From NCBI GenBank assembly GCA_013330595.1, contig DUIB01000009.1, positions 74 to 64,073 on the forward strand: a stretch of DNA of 64,000 nt. Reading direction: 5' to 3'. The position numbers and the translations under genes are program-made. The stretch comes from Candidatus Woesearchaeota archaeon (GTDB lineage Archaea > Nanobdellota > Nanobdellia > Woesearchaeales > UBA9642). Positions 6,715 through 28,385 of the stretch are shown piece by piece. The notes below the pieces were generated by a model. That model saw only the letters and a list, made by a program, of their open reading frames with translations. It had not been told where the DNA came from and ran no database searches. How positions within the stretch are numbered: position 1 is the stretch's first letter; the number at the start of each line of letters is the position of its first letter.

Positions 6715-8064
6715 GTGTTCTTTATAACGAAAGCTTTATATATTAATTGTATTTCCTATAATACAAAATTAGTACTTTTTGTTCAGTTGGAGATACAAAT
6801 GGATTACAAAGCGATTATTGTCCAATGGATGGAGTTTAAGATTCCTGAAGTTATGCATAGGGATATAAATATTGTTTTGGATAAGGGTTTTATAATAACA
6901 ATCACTGGCCCAAGGAGATCCGGAAAAACGTATATGTGCTTTCAATTAATGCATTCACTGTCAAGGAAAAATCTGTTATATCTAAATTTTGAGGACAATA
7001 AACTGTTAAATGCTGGCGCAGATGATCTTGATAAATTGCTGGAATCATTTTATGAACTTTCTGATGTCAATAAGGATTCCAGGATATGCCTATTTCTAGA
7101 TGAGATACAGAATGTTAGGGATTGGGATGCATGGACGCGGAAGATGCATGATTATAATAAAAACATCCAACTGATAATTACTGGATCCAGCTCTAAGATG
7201 CTGAGTAGGGAGTTATCCACAAAACTTAGAGGACGCACTCTTGAGCATGAAATATTCCCATTGAGTTTTAAGGAGTTTCTTGAATGGAGAAATATTTCCT
7301 ATAATATGAAGACATTAAGCTATAGTAGAGATAAGATAGGCGTAAAGAAAGCTTTCAGTGAATATATGAAAAATGGCGGTTATCCAGCACTTATAAGTTT
7401 CGATGATAGAAAGACTGTTTTGCAATCATACTATGATACAATGATACTTAAGGATGTTGTTGAGAGGCATAATGTCTCTGATGTAAATAAATTAAGGCTA
7501 GTTGCCAATCTTCTTATTGAGTCTGCATCCAGAGAGATATCCTATAATAAGTTGGCCAATAAGCTGAAATCTATTGGCGTAAGCATGAGCAAGAATACAA
7601 TAATAGAATATATCTCCTACATGGAAGAATGCTATCTTGTTTTCCAGAACCTAAAATATGAATATTCCTTAACCAAACAGCTAGGGGCAATAAAGAAACT
7701 GTATGTTATAGATACAGGATTGCTTAATGCAATAAGCTTCAAGTATTCAGAGGATAATGGTAAATTATTGGAGAATATTATTTACATACAATTGAGAAGG
7801 CAAAGCAGGGAAATTTATTATCATTCTGGAAAGAATGAATGTGATTTCATAATTAAAGATGGCAACAGGATTATTTCTGCAATTCAGGCATGCTATGAAT
7901 TGAATGATGATAATAGGGATAGAGAGGTCAAGGGATTGCTTGAAGCTATGAGTGAGCATAAATTGAGAGAGGGATTGATAATTACACTGGATCAAGATGA
8001 TGAGTTTATTATTGATAAGAAAAAGATTAGGGTGGTTCCTGCTTGGAAGTGGCTGTTAGGCTGA
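6715..8064 (+). CDS. AAA+ ATPase with C-terminal DUF4143-like domain (COG1373 family); likely true start at Met ~6796 (MDYKAIIV)
   Basis: Walker A is 'ITGPRRSGKTY'. There are 'LFLDEIQ' and 'ITGSSS' sensor motifs and a C-terminal 'WKWLLG'. It is a paralog of 13644-14909. Confidence 0.65.
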   Translation: MFFITKALYINCISYNTKLVLFVQLEIQMDYKAIIVQWMEFKIPEVMHRDINIVLDKGFIITITGPRRSGKTYMCFQLMHSLSRKNLLYLNFEDNKLLNAGADDLDKLLESFYELSDVNKDSRICLFLDEIQNVRDWDAWTRKMHDYNKNIQLIITGSSSKMLSRELSTKLRGRTLEHEIFPLSFKEFLEWRNISYNMKTLSYSRDKIGVKKAFSEYMKNGGYPALISFDDRKTVLQSYYDTMILKDVVERHNVSDVNKLRLVANLLIESASREISYNKLANKLKSIGVSMSKNTIIEYISYMEECYLVFQNLKYEYSLTKQLGAIKKLYVIDTGLLNAISFKYSEDNGKLLENIIYIQLRRQSREIYYHSGKNECDFIIKDGNRIISAIQACYELNDDNRDREVKGLLEAMSEHKLREGLIITLDQDDEFIIDKKKIRVVPAWKWLLG

Positions 8065-21993: not shown

Positions 21994-23844
21994 TTATTCT
22001 CCCTTATACTTCTTCACTAATTCCATGATCCTTGATCCAGGGAATTTGCCTCTGTACTTCTTCATGGTTTCGCCCATTAAGGCTGCAGAATTCAGATTAG
22101 GATGTTTGGATATCAGGTTGACAATGAATGATATCAATTCTTCTTCATTTGTTTTGTATATAGAGAAATCAATTGTATTGCCTTTTGCATATTCGACCAT
22201 GATCTCTATTATTGCTTCTTTTGCTAGGTCTCCTGAATTTAATTTTGCTAATATATTATCAGCCAGCTCTCTGAATCTTTCCAATTCAACATCAATCTCA
22301 AGATTGAATCTTGTCTTTACTTCTTTTGGTGTTGAAACCAAAATCTCAGCAATCGTTACTGGTTTTACTTGAGGATATTTCTTTACAAATATTTCAAAAT
22401 CATTCTCAAAAACTAATTCCTTTGCAACCTGTGCAGGCAATGAGTATTTTTTTTCAAATCTCACCACTTTATCCTTAATCAATTCTGGCATCTCAATTTC
22501 ACTTAGATCAGGGATTATTGTCTTTACATCTGTCTCGGGATACATTCTTGAGCTTCCAGGCATTGGCCTTAAGAATGATGATGTTCCATCTTCTCGAGCA
22601 TTGCGCACTTCTTTTGACAATCCTTTATCATAGAATGATTTGATTGTTTCATCAATCTTATTAAATGCAAATTTGCATTTTTCTTCTGTCCCGATAATCA
22701 TTATCAACGAATCTGAATCATCAAGATTCAATGCGTCATAAATTTTCTTTACTTCATCAGCAATCTTATATTTATTCAGATCCTCATCTGTATGTATCAA
22801 TCCGTTTAATCCAAATGCTTTTATCCTGTCGCTCAATTCTGAGCCAAATCTTCTGGAAGGATTGACTTCAAATCCGAAAAACCCTTTGAAATCCTTATAG
22901 AATTTTCCATAAACTCTTGAATCAACATTCTTTTTTATCATAGAACTCTTAGTATCAGAAAAATATTCAGTTAAATCTATAATTTCATTTGATAAATCAA
23001 GTTTTTTTATTCTTGCTCTTATCTCATCACGTAATTTCAACATAGTTAATTGTCTTAACACTTCAAGCTCAACAACAGTATCAATCATCCTTAAATCCTG
23101 AACACCTTTAATTTCTGTTCTTGCACCTTCTGCAATTGATACATTAACATCTTGCCTGATTGTTCCGAGTCCTCTCTTGACTTTTCCAGTAGAACGAAGC
23201 ATCATTCCAATAAATCCTGCAATATCCTTAACTTGTTTAGCTGTTCTCATATCAGGACCCGTCGCAATCTCAATCAATGGAATTCCTAATCTATCAAGAC
23301 GATAAATATCATGATCCTGGTCTCTTGAAATAATCCTTGCTGCATCCTCTTCCAAACATAATGTATCAATCTTTATCCTGTTTAATTTTTCATCACTTTC
23401 AACTTCAATAAAACCATTTCTTGCAATCAATGCAGTCCTCTGAAATCCAGATGTATTAGAACCATCAACAACAGTCTTTCTCATGACATGCACTTGATTA
23501 ACTGTCTCTGCATTCATCATCTTTGATAATTGAAGAACAATCTTCAATGCTTCAGGATTGATATTGAATGGGGGGCATTCATCAAGCTCAACGTCGCAGA
23601 TAGTATCATTATAGTATTCATACACATAATGTTTCTGCTTAGACATCTCATATGCAGCAGCAATATCAACAGATCCTGTCTCACCAGCACTTGCTCTTAA
23701 TACTCTCTTGATAGTTTTGTCAGGAGCATCCTCCCTAATATCAGAAGGACAATTGCAGAACAACTTATTTGTATCAAGCTGCTGATGTATCTCCAATCCG
23801 GCTTTTAGGCCTAGTTTGGCATAATCCACATCTCTCATGAGCAT
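21994..23844 (-). CDS. gatE: glutamyl-tRNA(Gln) amidotransferase subunit E
   Basis: The protein is 616 aa. The N-terminus has 'GLEIHQQLDTNKLFCNCPS', a GatB/E-like catalytic domain and a C-terminal GatB/YqeY-like tail. Confidence 0.85.
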   Translation of the reverse strand: MLMRDVDYAKLGLKAGLEIHQQLDTNKLFCNCPSDIREDAPDKTIKRVLRASAGETGSVDIAAAYEMSKQKHYVYEYYNDTICDVELDECPPFNINPEALKIVLQLSKMMNAETVNQVHVMRKTVVDGSNTSGFQRTALIARNGFIEVESDEKLNRIKIDTLCLEEDAARIISRDQDHDIYRLDRLGIPLIEIATGPDMRTAKQVKDIAGFIGMMLRSTGKVKRGLGTIRQDVNVSIAEGARTEIKGVQDLRMIDTVVELEVLRQLTMLKLRDEIRARIKKLDLSNEIIDLTEYFSDTKSSMIKKNVDSRVYGKFYKDFKGFFGFEVNPSRRFGSELSDRIKAFGLNGLIHTDEDLNKYKIADEVKKIYDALNLDDSDSLIMIIGTEEKCKFAFNKIDETIKSFYDKGLSKEVRNAREDGTSSFLRPMPGSSRMYPETDVKTIIPDLSEIEMPELIKDKVVRFEKKYSLPAQVAKELVFENDFEIFVKKYPQVKPVTIAEILVSTPKEVKTRFNLEIDVELERFRELADNILAKLNSGDLAKEAIIEIMVEYAKGNTIDFSIYKTNEEELISFIVNLISKHPNLNSAALMGETMKKYRGKFPGSRIMELVKKYKGE

Positions 23845-23887
23845 GAAGAAAGGAATCCTGAATTTAAATGTTGCGGAAGAATAAAAA
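23797..23887. repeat. left copy of a ~90-bp direct repeat (gatE 5' coding end plus promoter)
   Basis: It is repeated at 30032-30123 with about 85% identity. Together the copies bracket the DGR/toxin-antitoxin/purF-like segment. Confidence 0.6.
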
Positions 23888-23910
23888 ATATCCCAGCATG
23901 TTTAGCTTGA

Positions 23911-24004
23911 CTATTCCAACGAGGCGATTATTGTTGTTGTCTAGATTGTTCCTAGCATTAGCATTTGAATTATTGTTGAGCCTGGAAACAAACCACAAGT
24001 GCCC
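23911..24004 (-). repeat. DGR template repeat (TR), sense on the minus strand
   Basis: This 94-nt copy is near-identical to 24403-24496. Thirteen of 14 differences are at TR adenines (AAY codons; the in-frame TR translation is ...LNNNSNANARNNLDNNNNRLV...). It is not part of a full-length gene. Confidence 0.75.
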
Positions 24005-24259
24005 CCAGAGTAGCTCTTTCACTGAAAGTATGCACTGCCACTTCATTTCTAACAGAAATCCACAGATTTCTGGAAGATCCCAAAAATGTTTCATTTTTGA
24101 TATCTGTCGTAGCTGTATTTTATAACAACATCCGCATGTTATCGTAGTGAAAGGGCATGTAGTCCAGCTACTCCATATCGCACGATTTTTCGGAAATCAT
24201 GCAAAGTGCTGGGATAATAAGAACGTTAAAGAAGAAATATAAAAAGTTAATGAAAAAAA

Positions 24260-25045
24260 TTACAATTTTACTGAAGGGTCAGCAGAAGGCACATACAACA
24301 ATCCATTGTATTGGAATGCCTTTCCACCAATCAACGCATCCTTGACCTTGTCATCCAATGCAAAAGATGCCTGATTTTTGCTCGCCGACTGCGCCTTCGG
24401 CGCTACCCCAACGAGGCGAACATTGTCGTCGTCTAGATTGCCCCTAGCAATAGCATCTGAATCATTGATGAGCCTGGAAGCAAACCACAAGCGCCCTACG
24501 GGCACGTCTGGAGTGTCACTAACATAGACTCCCATAATCTTGCTGTAGCCATGATCTGCTTTTGCTTTATCGAATGCTTTTCCTGCATATTCTTCAAGCA
24601 GTGCTTGATCTCTAGCTAATGCTTTCCATATTGGGTTTGATATTACTTCTTTTCGTGATAATGATTCTCCTTTTGCGTATTTGTTGAGTTCATCTCTTGT
24701 GAATTCTTGTCCTTCTAACGCCTTGTATTCGTCATCAGAAATGATTAATGCTCCATTCTTTAATTTACTTTGTGGGTTGATTCTTCGCATGATTCCTGAA
24801 TCAAGAACAACCTTAGCATTTCCATTTGTATTGTAGAACTTTGCGTCTCCTGTATCGAAATAATTTTCCCAGAAAGTTTTTATCAGATCTTGGTCTCCAG
24901 AATTTAATGTTTCTAGTCTCCGCTGCATCAATCCCTGCGTTGACATTGGTGTTCTGCCTTCAGCAATAAGTAAAGGCATCTGGTCAGTATTTCTTCCATA
25001 AAATTCCTTATAATCTTTGACTGTATCATTAAGTTGTAAAGCCAT
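24260..25045 (-). CDS. DGR variable (target) protein, 261 aa; possible C-type-lectin-like variable ligand-binding region (fold uncertain)
   Basis: It carries the variable repeat at codons ~184-214 ('GRLWFASRLINDSDAIARGNLDDDNVRLVGV'). The corresponding TR codons are Asn-rich. Confidence 0.7.
   Translation of the reverse strand: MALQLNDTVKDYKEFYGRNTDQMPLLIAEGRTPMSTQGLMQRRLETLNSGDQDLIKTFWENYFDTGDAKFYNTNGNAKVVLDSGIMRRINPQSKLKNGALIISDDEYKALEGQEFTRDELNKYAKGESLSRKEVISNPIWKALARDQALLEEYAGKAFDKAKADHGYSKIMGVYVSDTPDVPVGRLWFASRLINDSDAIARGNLDDDNVRLVGVAPKAQSASKNQASFALDDKVKDALIGGKAFQYNGLLYVPSADPSVKL
24385..24420 (-). promoter_or_regulatory. IMH-like GC-rich VR 3' end (CGCCTCGTTGGGGTAG) followed immediately by the GC hairpin GCGCC-GAA-GGCGC
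   Basis: The TR end reads CGCCTCGTTGGAATAG, an IMH* differing by 2 nt. The 5-bp GC stem with a 3-nt loop is extremely GC-rich for this genome. It matches the canonical DGR homing cis-element layout. Confidence 0.55.
24403..24496 (-). repeat. DGR variable repeat (VR) inside the target gene
   Basis: It aligns with the TR. Adenine-specific substitutions include N->D/I/G/V, H->R and I->V. Confidence 0.75.
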
Positions 25046-25232: not shown

Positions 25233-26864
25233 ATGTACAAAACAATATACGACTACGAAAACCTTGAACGGGCATTCATTAATGCCAGAAAAAGAAAAAC
25301 CAAGAAAAAATATGTAATGGAATTCGAGGACAAGCTTAAGGAAAACCTTCTAAAACTACAGGAAGAATTGAAGTCACAAACCTACAAGCCAAAACCTCTA
25401 GAGATATTTATTCTAAGAGATCCTAAAACAAGAAAAATATCAAAATCAGACTTTAGGGATAGAGTAATTCATCATGCACTCTACAATATCATTGAGCCAA
25501 TATTTGATAAAACATTCATCCATGATTCTTACGCCAACAGATTAACAAAAGGAGCACTAAAAGCTATAGAAAGATTTGATCACTTTAAGAGAAAAGTCTC
25601 AAAGAATAATAAAAGAGACTGTCATTTTCTTAAAGCAGATATTAGGCACTATTTCGATAATGTTGACCACCAAATACTTCTGGACGTCTTAGAAAGAAAG
25701 ATAGAAGACAAAAAAAGTATGTGGCTTATCAAACAAATTCTTAATAACCACAAGGAAAAAGAAGCAGGAAAAGGAATGCCACTAGGAAATCTTACATCTC
25801 AATTCTTTGCTAATGTTTACTTAAATGAGTTGGATCAATATGTAAAACATATTTTGAAGGCAAAATATTATATCAGATATGTTGACGATTTCATTATACT
25901 GCATGATTCTATAGACGTGTTGAAAAATTACGAAGAGAAAATAAATATTTTTTTGAAAGAAGTGCTGAAATTAGAGCTTCATCCAGACAAATCAAAAATC
26001 ATTCGCCTAGACAAAGGAGCTAATTTCTTAGGATTCCGAATATTCTACAATCACAAACTCATAAGAAAAAAGAACTTGAATAAATTCGAGAAAAACTTCA
26101 ACCAACTAAAGCAAGATTATAAAGAAGGAATTATTGACAGAGAAAAAGTCATGGAAAAATTCGAAGGATGGATAGCATACATTAGTCATGCAAATACATA
26201 TAAATATAGAATACACCTGACTAAAGAATTAAACAAAAATTTTCCAATAAAAAAACTAATAAGAATTGTCTATATAAAAAAACATGAAAATCATTTAAAG
26301 AGAACTGAATTGAGTGAGTTTCAGTATAGTCCACAAAAAACCTTGCAATTATTCGAACAAAAATTAAGCATAAAGCAAATTGCTGAACAACGTGGAATAA
26401 AAGAATCTACTGTATGGGGGCATTTCGCTAAACTAATAGAATATAACCAATGCACGGTGTGGGATATATTGCCTAGAGAAAAGGTAATTCTAATTCTTAC
26501 ACGTATTAATAACGAGCTGGACTTATTGAAGAGTATAAAACTAAGATTAAAAGATGAAAGCATAACTTATCCAGAAATAAATTGTGTTCTCGCAAGTGTA
26601 AAAGCAAAAAACAAGAAGAAAAACATTCTCTATCACTTCAAATGGTACAAGAGAAGTCACTGCTACAGAAAATGCTACGAAAATCTAGAACAAAGAAAAA
26701 TTTGCGAAATGAAATTCAAACACTTCATTGCAGAAAATCCTACATGGCAACTAACAAAAAGAGAATTCCTAATTGTCTTCAATAATCAAATGAATATATG
26801 CATTCTTCCTGATAAAGAAAAAAGAAGATACATGGGCTATAAAGAATTCAAGGAAAAGAAATAA
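25233..26864 (+). CDS. DGR-type reverse transcriptase with a ~200-aa C-terminal extension containing a predicted HTH
   Basis: It has RT motifs 1-7 ('RDRVIHHALYNII', 'FLKADIRHYFDNVDH', 'YIRYVDDFIILH'). 'LGNLTSQ' matches the DGR-RT signature [I/L]GxxxSQ, which replaces QGxxxSP of group II intron RTs. The C-terminal 'SIKQIAEQRGIKESTVWGHFAKLIE' is HTH-like. Confidence 0.85.
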   Translation: MYKTIYDYENLERAFINARKRKTKKKYVMEFEDKLKENLLKLQEELKSQTYKPKPLEIFILRDPKTRKISKSDFRDRVIHHALYNIIEPIFDKTFIHDSYANRLTKGALKAIERFDHFKRKVSKNNKRDCHFLKADIRHYFDNVDHQILLDVLERKIEDKKSMWLIKQILNNHKEKEAGKGMPLGNLTSQFFANVYLNELDQYVKHILKAKYYIRYVDDFIILHDSIDVLKNYEEKINIFLKEVLKLELHPDKSKIIRLDKGANFLGFRIFYNHKLIRKKNLNKFEKNFNQLKQDYKEGIIDREKVMEKFEGWIAYISHANTYKYRIHLTKELNKNFPIKKLIRIVYIKKHENHLKRTELSEFQYSPQKTLQLFEQKLSIKQIAEQRGIKESTVWGHFAKLIEYNQCTVWDILPREKVILILTRINNELDLLKSIKLRLKDESITYPEINCVLASVKAKNKKKNILYHFKWYKRSHCYRKCYENLEQRKICEMKFKHFIAENPTWQLTKREFLIVFNNQMNICILPDKEKRRYMGYKEFKEKK

Positions 26865-26982: not shown

Positions 26983-27228
26983 ATGGTTCAGGCAATGGTC
27001 GATATCGGAGAACATGAGGATAGGATCTTGACAATAGTCAAGGGCAAATTCGGTTTTAAGAATAAATCTGATGCAGTGAATTTTGTCATATCAAGATTTG
27101 AGGCTGAACTCTTAGAGCCAGAATTAAGACCTGAATTTGTCCAAAAAATCCAAAAATTAGATAAAAACAAAAAGTTCACAAGTTATAAAACTCTCTCTGA
27201 CTTAAGAAAAGAGATTGAACATGCATAA
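26983..27228 (+). CDS. putative antitoxin (small archaeal DUF2683-like protein) paired with the RelE-like toxin
   Basis: It is 81 aa and overlaps the downstream RelE-like gene by 14 nt. Confidence 0.4.
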   Translation: MVQAMVDIGEHEDRILTIVKGKFGFKNKSDAVNFVISRFEAELLEPELRPEFVQKIQKLDKNKKFTSYKTLSDLRKEIEHA

Positions 27229-27499
27229 ATTCTCGATTGAAGAAGGCTTGAGGAAAACCTTAAATAAATTATTCAAAAAAGATCGGGTTACTTATGAAAT
27301 TTTAATGAAAAAAATTGAAGAGATATTGTCAAATAATGATATCAGTCATTACAAGAATTTAAGAAGTCCTCTTCAAGATTTCAAAAGAGTCCATGTAAGA
27401 GGACCGTTTATCTTGACTTTCAAATATGTTGAATCAGAAGATAAAATAATATTCTATGATTTTGATCATCATGATTATATTTATAGAAAAGATAAATAA
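27215..27499 (+). CDS. RelE/ParE-family toxin
   Basis: The C-terminal 'KRVHVRGPFILTFKYVESEDKIIFYDFDHHDYIY' matches the RelE/ParE fold consensus. Confidence 0.6.
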   Translation: MNMHKFSIEEGLRKTLNKLFKKDRVTYEILMKKIEEILSNNDISHYKNLRSPLQDFKRVHVRGPFILTFKYVESEDKIIFYDFDHHDYIYRKDK

Positions 27500-27589
27500 T
27501 TTTCACTCTCATCCGTAATTCTTCCGAAAAATTCTGAGTAATGCATATAAAGAATCGCGTATTATCCTATTCAAAGAAAACCTTTATAA

Positions 27590-27621
27590 ATAAGATAATC
27601 TTACTAATAAGATAATCTTAT
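27590..27621. promoter_or_regulatory. tandem palindromic operator-like repeats (TAAGATAATCTTA x2) upstream of the AbrB antitoxin gene
   Basis: Two copies of 'ataagataatctta' lie 15-45 nt upstream of the 27637 start, followed by the RBS 'ggaggg'. An 'aaaacctttataaata' BRE/TATA-like element lies just upstream. Confidence 0.4.
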
Positions 27622-27636
27622 TATGGAGGGATCGTT

Positions 27637-27894
27637 ATGGCAAGCATCGATATAACAAGCATGAGCTCAAGAGGGCAGATAGTTATACCATTAAATCTGA
27701 GAGAGATGATGGGATTGAAGGAAGGCGAAAAATTTGCAGTCACAGGCAAAGAAGATACTATCATATTGAAGAAAATCCAGATGCCTTCTTTTGATAATTT
27801 CGATAAATTAATGCAGCAAACACAAGAATTTGCTAAGAAGAAAGAAATAAAACAAAAAGATCTTGATAGCGCTGTGCATAGGGCAAGAAAATGA
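27637..27894 (+). CDS. AbrB/MazE (SpoVT-AbrB swapped-hairpin) antitoxin
   Basis: It has the 'SSRGQIVIPLNLREMMGLKEGEKFAVTGKEDTIIL' motif. Its stop overlaps the ATG of the PIN gene (ATGA). Confidence 0.6.
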   Translation: MASIDITSMSSRGQIVIPLNLREMMGLKEGEKFAVTGKEDTIILKKIQMPSFDNFDKLMQQTQEFAKKKEIKQKDLDSAVHRARK

Positions 27895-28385
27895 ATGTTG
27901 TCTTAGATACAAATATTTTTATAAAAAAAATCCAGAAAATTTATTTCTAATGTATATATTACTGGATTTTTTGTATCCTAAAAATTCATTTCTATTGAAT
28001 TTTTATGATCTCGGGAATATTTTGGAAAGGAGATCCTTATAGGATACTCTTGTTATGGAAAGAAAACAGAATACAACTAATAAATTCAATAGAAATAATT
28101 GCTGAAATATCAAGAACATTATCTGATTTTAAAATTCAATTGTCAGAAGAATTGAAGAAAGGATGGATAACTTTAATTAAAAATAATAGTATTATTGTTG
28201 AGCCTAAAGAAAAAATCGCGATAATAAAAGATGATCCTACAGATAACAAATTTATTGAAGCAGCAATTGAAGGAAAAGCCGATTTTATAATAACAAACGA
28301 TAAACACCTCCTAAAAATCAAACAATTTAGAAATGTAAAGATAATTACGCCAAAAGAGTTCTTAAACACATACTTAACATTATGA
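27891..28385 (+). pseudogene. PIN-domain toxin (TIGR00305-like) split by a ~85-nt hairpin-containing insertion or frameshift
   Basis: The ATG at 27891 encodes 'MNVVLDTNIFIKK', the canonical PIN N-terminus, followed by stops at 27948 and 27996. The rest of the PIN domain ('ISGIFW...DPTDNKFIEAAIEGKADFIITNDKHLL') resumes at 28005. Confidence 0.5.

Follow-up and report, generated by a model that had tools for sequence, protein, structure and literature searches.

The diversity-generating retroelements (DGRs) of the DUSEL4 Nanoarchaeota and of the phage BPP-1 are the described systems that are closest to the locus presented here. In the DUSEL4 DGRs the element for initiation of mutagenic homing (IMH) at the end of the variable repeat (VR) has the motif TGGGGT, whereas its counterpart IMH* in the template repeat (TR) has TGGAAT, and every hairpin carries a GRA trinucleotide loop and lies within the gene of the target protein (Paul et al. 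2015, Nat Commun 6:6585; PMC4372165). In the target protein AvpA, 46 residues follow the VR and the hairpin is encoded at their start (Handa et al. 2016, PMC5006420). BPP-1 has a GC-rich inverted repeat just 3' of the VR, and the targeting of terminator stem-loops by group IIC introns was named as an evolutionary analogue (Guo et al. 2011, PLoS Genet 7:e1002414; PMC3240598). Here we describe a DGR in a stretch of 64 kb from a Candidatus Woesearchaeota archaeon (contig DUIB01000009.1), which is referred to as the window in the following and in which the VR, the TR and the target gene all have the minus strand as sense strand. The segment 24391-24419, comprising the last bases of the VR and a GC-rich hairpin, is likely, with a probability of about 0.8, to be the recipient-site signal for mutagenic retrohoming of a DGR of the DPANN/Nanoarchaeota type.

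The locus is a DGR, as seen from the adenine-biased mismatches between TR and VR, the motifs of the reverse transcriptase (RT) and the AvpA-like fold of the target protein. VR and TR, which are offset by 492, have 14 mismatches over 94 nt, out of which 13 are found at TR adenines, and in the related loci 54% of the adenine sites are substituted family-wide compared to 6% of the other sites. The RT contains an RVT_1 domain (E = 2.5e-25) in which the DGR-type motif LGNLTSQ starts at residue 184 and YVDD at 216, and a HTH_40 domain (residues 368-453, E = 1.2e-17) that is also spanned by most of the RT matches in the family. The open reading frames (ORFs) flanking the RT, the target gene and the TR gave no Avd-like Pfam match. 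Avd is not universal among DGRs, and therefore the missing match does not exclude the locus from them. Neither a second VR nor a second hairpin is present within the window.

The hairpin GCGCC-GAA-GGCGC at the VR 3' end, which had been noticed in a preliminary description made from the sequence alone, is present at 24403-24391 of the minus strand. It was described as located directly downstream of the VR, and this is right as far as the spacing is zero; however, the first G of the hairpin is at the same time the base with which the identity of VR and TR ends, and thus belongs to the VR end. It is the sole perfect all-GC 5-bp stem with a loop of 3-6 nt in the whole window, whereas mononucleotide shuffles give 0.08. 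The 46-nt patch around it (24380-24425) has a GC content of 67% and the window one of 33%, which corrects the approximately 25% given before for the genome. The target ORF reads V-A-P-K-A-Q across the hairpin and continues for about 48 more codons, and the TAG at the VR end lies out of frame and is not a stop. When folded in isolation, a 19-mer with the hairpin is stable as DNA (-6.0 kcal/mol, z about -3.3, on either strand) as well as RNA (-8.6 kcal/mol, z = -2.8). Folds of 46 nt, the length of the patch 24380-24425 that the preliminary description had suggested to fold, and of 81 nt do not surpass those of shuffled sequences (z = -0.7 to -2.0). An outer helix GTTCGCC/GGCGAGC, predicted to enclose the VR end together with the hairpin (24380-24421, minus strand), was dropped, as it is not conserved in the relatives.

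For comparison, 74 orthologous loci were collected by a related-locus search from an alignment of 10 sequences, and the VR and TR copies were aligned by anchoring on the GR[LF]VG[VIL] codons, which gave 75 VR ends from DPANN genomes. A perfect 5-bp stem with a 3-nt loop is found at the same position in 64 of the 75 VR ends, and 28 of these 64 reach 6 bp; the hairpin is thus conserved among the orthologous DGR targets with which the preliminary description had suggested to compare it. The loops of the 64 perfect hairpins are GGA (35), AGA (25), GAA (3) and GGG (1), giving the consensus R-R-A, and the stems are GCGCC/GGCGC (54), GCACC/GGTGC (6) and GCGTC/GACGC (4). Pairing is seen in 87.6% of the stem cells compared to 18-50% in controls with the partner displaced by 1-3 columns. 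Moreover, 19 cells show changes in both partners, whereas shuffles give 3.1 and none out of 500 shuffles attains 19, and G-U pairs make up 4 out of 450 cells among the stem variants. The position of the hairpin is locked to the boundary of VR/TR homology within 0-3 nt, and no TR copy of the family has the hairpin. Loci with a perfect hairpin also contain an RT in 46 of 64 cases compared to 1 of 11 with an imperfect one (Fisher p = 1.3e-4), a difference that is somewhat weakened by contig truncation and shared ancestry. Seven target homologs without an RT nearby have degraded hairpins (L016 at 6900-7010, L006, L039, L045, L047, L051 and L052), and in L016 the TR is decayed as well, with RSIVVGRYDLDNDN replacing the N-rich template; these homologs look like decaying DGR targets. 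Just past the hairpin, a third GC arm (GGCGC, 3-7 nt, GCGC) is present in 26 of the 75 VR ends, again with rare GCG and CCG codons, examples being L003, L007, L012, L017, L026, L029, L054, L060 and L064 among others. This arm might pair with the 3' arm to give an alternative hairpin.

The second part of the putative signal is the VR end itself. In the sense direction the VR 3' end is CGCCTCGTTGGGGTAG (24418-24403, minus strand) and the TR 3' end is CGCCTCGTTGGAATAG (23926-23911, minus strand), and a 16-mer with NN at both differing positions occurs only at these two sites in the window, with 0.01 expected by chance. VR ..GTTGGGGTAG and TR ..GTTGGAATAG thereby form a pair TGGGGT versus TGGAAT. 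The adenine-free stretch preceding the difference, TCGCCTCGTTGG in the window, is the same for the TR and VR of any one locus, whereas from locus to locus a mean of 3.5 out of 16 nt is changed. The rewritten tract would therefore end in the adenine-free stretch, and by analogy this stretch is likely the zone of 3' cDNA integration. As both AA/GG differences are located on TR adenines, they are not separable from ordinary mutagenesis on the data of the window alone. Where a locus has two VRs, these paralogs are unlike each other at 50 of 87 adenine sites of the VR body (57%). At the terminal sites, differences are seen in 1 of 13 pairs for the first site (binomial p = 2.8e-4) and in 4 of 13 for the second, and all four second-site differences belong to old pairs of paralogs whose hairpins differ too. 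The same terminal dinucleotide recurs over many species of one clade, for example as GGTATA. All 33 TRs of the family end with G(G)AATA, and 13 of them are without one or two G before AATA relative to their own VR, so that copying through this point would shift the frame of the target. Furthermore, out of 25 VRs only one has another base in place of the final A of ..TA. Eleven different dinucleotides occur at the two AA/GG positions in the VRs of the family. The alignments support that AA/GG behaves as an IMH/IMH* difference, which is stable, lineage-specific and outside the rewritten tract, and the NNTA after the adenine-free stretch is, on the same grounds, a stable VR-specific sequence behaving like an IMH. 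The IMH/IMH* pair of the preliminary description accordingly stands as a 2-nt difference between the VR and TR ends that is not re-randomized, but not as a universal one, as six of the 75 VRs carry AA like the TR. The difference is therefore not needed to tell VR from TR, and it is probably not an essential signal for directionality. The constant discriminator between VR and TR is the hairpin.

Similar to the DGRs of the DUSEL4 Nanoarchaeota, the window has the TGGGGT/TGGAAT pair, a loop of the GRA type (GAA) and a hairpin inside the target gene. It differs from them in its host, a metagenome-assembled genome (MAG) labeled as Woesearchaeota, and in its RT gene, which precedes the target gene in divergent orientation. 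Across the wider family, moreover, dinucleotides other than GG occur in the IMH, and AGA, which is outside the strict GRA pattern, accounts for about 39% of the loops (25/64). The target protein shares with AvpA the C-type-lectin fold, a VR that is near but not at the C-terminus with approximately 46-48 residues after it, a hairpin at the start of this extension, and a last beta strand (R-[FL]-x-G-V) encoded by the IMH. However, phmmer gives no match between the two proteins at E < 1, the identity in the fold alignment is 21%, and the AvpA motifs GXXVVVYAH and HPXXXPFXG are not evident here. The parallel to BPP-1 drawn in the preliminary description holds for the logic of the arrangement, but not for its dimensions. 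In both cases the 3' end of the VR is closely followed by a GC-rich inverted repeat, the sense strand has a conserved purine-rich loop, natural variation preserves the stem structure, and a GC-rich non-mutated stretch shared by VR and TR is followed by sequence differences. The adenine-free stretch of the window would correspond in function to the (GC)14 part of the IMH of BPP-1. The stem, however, has 5 bp instead of 8 bp in BPP-1 (7-10 in other phages), the loop has 3 nt instead of the 4-nt GRNA of BPP-1 and related phages, the spacing between VR and hairpin is 0 nt instead of 4-34 bp, and the hairpin is inside the ORF instead of after the stop codon (PMC3240598). Unlike in BPP-1, the IMH-specific part comprises 2 nt, Avd was not detected, and RT and TR do not point in the same direction. 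The IMH and IMH* of BPP-1 have five differences in a 21-bp element. The likeness to group IIC introns is that a retroelement uses a GC-rich DNA stem-loop as an insertion landmark, but these introns use stems of at least 9 bp, the loop sequence is unimportant for them and the intron inserts itself without replacing a repeat; the window is also without intron RNA domains.

Taken as a mechanism, the RT would copy the TR, carried on an RNA that also bears the structured RNA motif RT-16, into adenine-mutagenized cDNA, which would then take the place of the VR in the target gene. The 3' junction would form within the 12 adenine-free nucleotides common to VR and TR, and the bases after this shared stretch would be VR-specific, GGTA in contrast to AATA in the TR. 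By analogy to the experiments on BPP-1 (PMC3240598) we infer that the cDNA integrates in the shared stretch, and that the hairpin takes part in target recognition in the form of DNA, as a hairpin or cruciform, and is required for homing. The zero-spaced hairpin with its 5-bp stem and GAA triloop would mark the VR, and not the TR, as recipient. Since it is present on the VR only, information would flow from TR to VR only, and since it is located inside the ORF, the peptide A-P-(E/K)-A and the rare codons GCG, CCR and GAG are forced on the protein.

Several points weigh against this interpretation. The homing role of the archaeal hairpin is transferred from BPP-1, where the loss of 2 bp from the 8-bp stem was enough to cripple homing (PMC3240598), and a palindrome of 13 bp with a 5-bp stem is short for the extrusion of a cruciform. 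The covariation is compatible with a DNA hairpin, an mRNA hairpin and a symmetric protein-binding palindrome alike and cannot separate them. Avd, as mentioned above, was not detected in the flanking ORFs. The pairs of paralogous VRs are not all phylogenetically independent, as L023, L030 and L031 are related and so are L041 and L053, and the six VRs with AA show that the IMH/IMH* difference is not universal. Finally, the VR appears near-static, with an identical protein on 20 contigs and one population variant only.

Other explanations for the palindrome and for the VR end have to be weighed against the recipient-site function. As the hairpin lies wholly within the ORF and the target family keeps the peptide GRLVGV-APEA with a nearly invariant A215, the palindrome could be a by-product of coding, with the A-P-E/K-A peptide being conserved behind the last beta strand and its DNA palindromic by chance. 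This is hardly credible in view of the codons. The APEA motif is encoded by GCG (51/51), CCR (51/51, with CCY in 0/51), GAG (51/51) and GCG (50/51), whereas elsewhere in the same genes GCG makes up 6.3% of the Ala codons, GAG 18% of the Glu codons and CCR 42%, CCT being the commonest Pro codon. Moreover, four VRs hold the hairpin shifted by +1 nt in another frame, where it encodes SAGGA, STEGA or STGGA, three further VRs have it shifted by one codon, covarying stems alter the amino acids (APEV, ASET), and the hairpin decays in loci lacking an RT. In the model of the target protein the residues encoded by the hairpin sit where a low-confidence linker starts, and the AvpA hairpin is predicted to encode five disordered residues (PMC5006420). 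Coding constraint, which the preliminary description had considered as a simple reason for the GC stretch, thus does not explain the fixed rare synonymous codons, the copies in another frame or the decay without RT/TR nearby. Together, the frame-shifted copies, the covariation, the fixed rare codons and the co-occurrence with the RT argue that the hairpin is selected as a nucleic acid and is tied to the retroelement, and that the APEA motif is a consequence of this. A nucleic acid hairpin could also act in the target mRNA, for example on its stability or processing or by making translation pause at the domain boundary, apart from retrohoming, since it is transcribed within the ORF, its RNA fold is stable and covariation is blind to RNA versus DNA. 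We regard this as very unlikely, because the integrity of the hairpin follows the presence of an RT or TR and not that of the gene, the hairpin is locked to the homology boundary, G-U pairs are nearly absent, and BPP-1 offers a direct functional precedent for a hairpin that acts as DNA at the same position (PMC3240598).

In DNA, the palindrome could work as a duplex, as a symmetric site for a dimeric protein (for example the HTH_40 of the RT or a host factor) and not as an extruded hairpin. The stem sequence, GCGCC/GGCGC in 54 of 64 cases, is far more invariant than structure alone demands, the stem is short for a cruciform, HTH_40 is conserved on the RT while Avd was not found, and an operator with two half-sites would covary symmetrically as well. 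However, in BPP-1 the structure of the stem and not its sequence matters, and hairpin formation was shown physically (PMC3240598); in addition, the center of the palindrome is asymmetric with a strand-specific R-R-A, whose first position is a purine in 51/51 cases compared to 42% in the background, as in GRNA and GRA loops. A duplex site is therefore quite unlikely. It is rather unlikely, too, that the hairpin is a sequence-specific recognition site for an Avd-independent targeting, in which the HTH_40 of the RT reads the hairpin, and the hairpin instead of the 2-nt difference sets directionality. This idea draws on the stem being almost invariant in hosts with target proteins of about 45% identity, on the zero spacing, on Avd not being detected next to a conserved HTH_40, and on the RT gene being freely placed around a self-contained RT-16-TR unit. 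With regard to the VR end, the change from AA to GG could be ordinary adenine mutagenesis without any distinction between IMH and IMH*, so that the hairpin alone would separate VR from TR. This was first favored, as both differences are on TR adenines and the family has 11 VR dinucleotides, including AA in six VRs. It was dropped after the comparison of the paralogs, the fixation within a clade and the indel of the TRs had been considered, and it now appears unlikely: VR paralogs under one TR are identical at the first site in 12 of 13 pairs despite 57% difference at the body sites, one clade shows GGTATA in many of its species, a deletion of 1-2 nt is present at the boundary in 13 of 33 TRs, and the final A is changed in a single VR out of 25.

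Features of the DGR locus in the window.
Feature	Position	Strand	Description
Template repeat 3' tail, then T6	23883..23910	-	TCAAGCTAAACATGCTGGGATA then T6; no hairpin, no homology to the sequence after the VR
Template repeat (TR)	23911..24004	-	94 nt; 31 adenines, AAY-rich codons; ends GGAATAG; IMH*-type TGGAAT at 23918-23913
RT-16 structured RNA motif (Rfam RF03019)	24005..24212	-	Adjoins the TR 5' end; 63.4 bits vs gathering score 50
Target (variable) protein gene	24260..25045	-	261 aa; AvpA-like C-type-lectin fold; about 48 residues after the VR
Target-site hairpin GCGCC-GAA-GGCGC	24391..24403	-	5-bp all-GC stem, GAA triloop; inside the target ORF, codons V214-A-P-K-A-Q219
Variable repeat (VR)	24403..24496	-	94 nt; codes for residues ~184-214 of the target protein
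VR-specific terminal GGTA	24404..24407	-	GG at 24407-24406 vs AA in the TR; IMH-type motif TGGGGT
Adenine-free stretch	24408..24419	-	TCGCCTCGTTGG; 12 nt at the VR 3' end, same as TR copy
DGR reverse transcriptase	25233..26864	+	543 aa; divergent from the target gene; RVT_1 and C-terminal HTH_40

The target protein, whose gene ends with a stop codon at 24262-24260, has neither a Pfam match nor a match to a PDB sequence. Its AlphaFold model (pLDDT 87), however, has one significant match in a fold search against PDB, which is AvpA of Nanoarchaeota (5IOO, E = 2.5e-10). The protein family comprises 181 matches, and every named one is from DPANN archaea. An identical protein is annotated in a Candidatus Woesearchaeota MAG, and it is present on the 20 public contigs mentioned above. 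The only population variant, P0125 (SRR3989339), has seven residue differences, all at AAY or AGG codons of the TR. The changes in P0125 are restricted to the 5' two-thirds of the VR and the 3' third (DDDNV) is unaltered, a pattern that is opposite to the expectation for 3'-anchored partial homing. A look-up of the P0125 protein found no DNA for it. An exact-pattern scan of metagenome contigs for the VR end of the window together with the hairpin gave no match. The sole VR/TR mismatch that is not at an adenine is located at 24480, where the TR has T and the VR has C, yielding Ala189. This Ala189 is common to P0121 and P0124, whereas the TR-like Val is kept in P0001, P0123 and P0125. The mismatch is a point mutation or an error of the RT, and is not due to adenine mutagenesis.

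On the side of the template RNA, the RT-16 match in the window covers the full-length covariance model, and all 14 related loci that were scanned likewise have RT-16 just ahead of their TR. RT-16 is presumably a part of the DGR template RNA and belongs to the donor (TR) side of the DGR, not to the recipient side. The TRs of the family are followed by a tail with the pattern G(G)AATA, 15-22 nt, YWGGRAC, which in the window (23889-23916, minus strand) is GGAATA-GTCAAGCTAAACATGCTGGGATA. RNAalifold found no consensus helix in this conserved 3' tail, which may be the region for initiation or priming of the cDNA. A TATA-like sequence TTTATATT is located at 24236-24243 (minus strand), about 28 nt before the start of RT-16 and just past the stop codon of the target gene, and a run of T6 (23883-23888, minus strand) comes after the TR tail. 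Both suggest a separate template RNA of approximately 330 nt, which would comprise RT-16, the TR and the tail and have its own archaeal promoter and terminator. The placement of the RT gene relative to the target gene and TR varies among the loci, as the gene is found downstream in the same or in convergent orientation, or upstream in the divergent orientation seen in the window. Neighbors of the DGR are genes for a DUF2683 protein and for a MazE-like antitoxin with a PIN-domain toxin (26983-28385, plus strand). Downstream of the TR a GatE-type amidotransferase subunit is encoded (21994-23844, minus strand), which has a GatB/GatE catalytic domain with a GAD-domain insert, and the start codon of which is about 40 nt past the T-run that trails the TR. 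A subunit of this type is indicative of an archaeal host.

The cis-elements of this type were already described for nanoarchaeal DGRs in 2015 (PMC4372165), and the window is a further case of this published class. Mainly, known biology is confirmed, namely that archaeal DGRs retain a hairpin at the recipient site together with an IMH-like boundary. What is gained from the comparison of the family is clear evidence that a DNA element of 13 nt can override codon choice and even dictate a conserved peptide (APEA) within a gene, and that the homing tract would halt in the adenine-free stretch, ahead of the last two adenines of the TR. Furthermore, the IMH/IMH* difference seems to be dispensable in some members, whereas the hairpin is the constant VR-specific mark. 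The module of about 30 nt consisting of the adenine-free stretch, NNTA and the 13-nt hairpin is a very compact candidate for a tag with which a DGR might be directed to another gene of choice.

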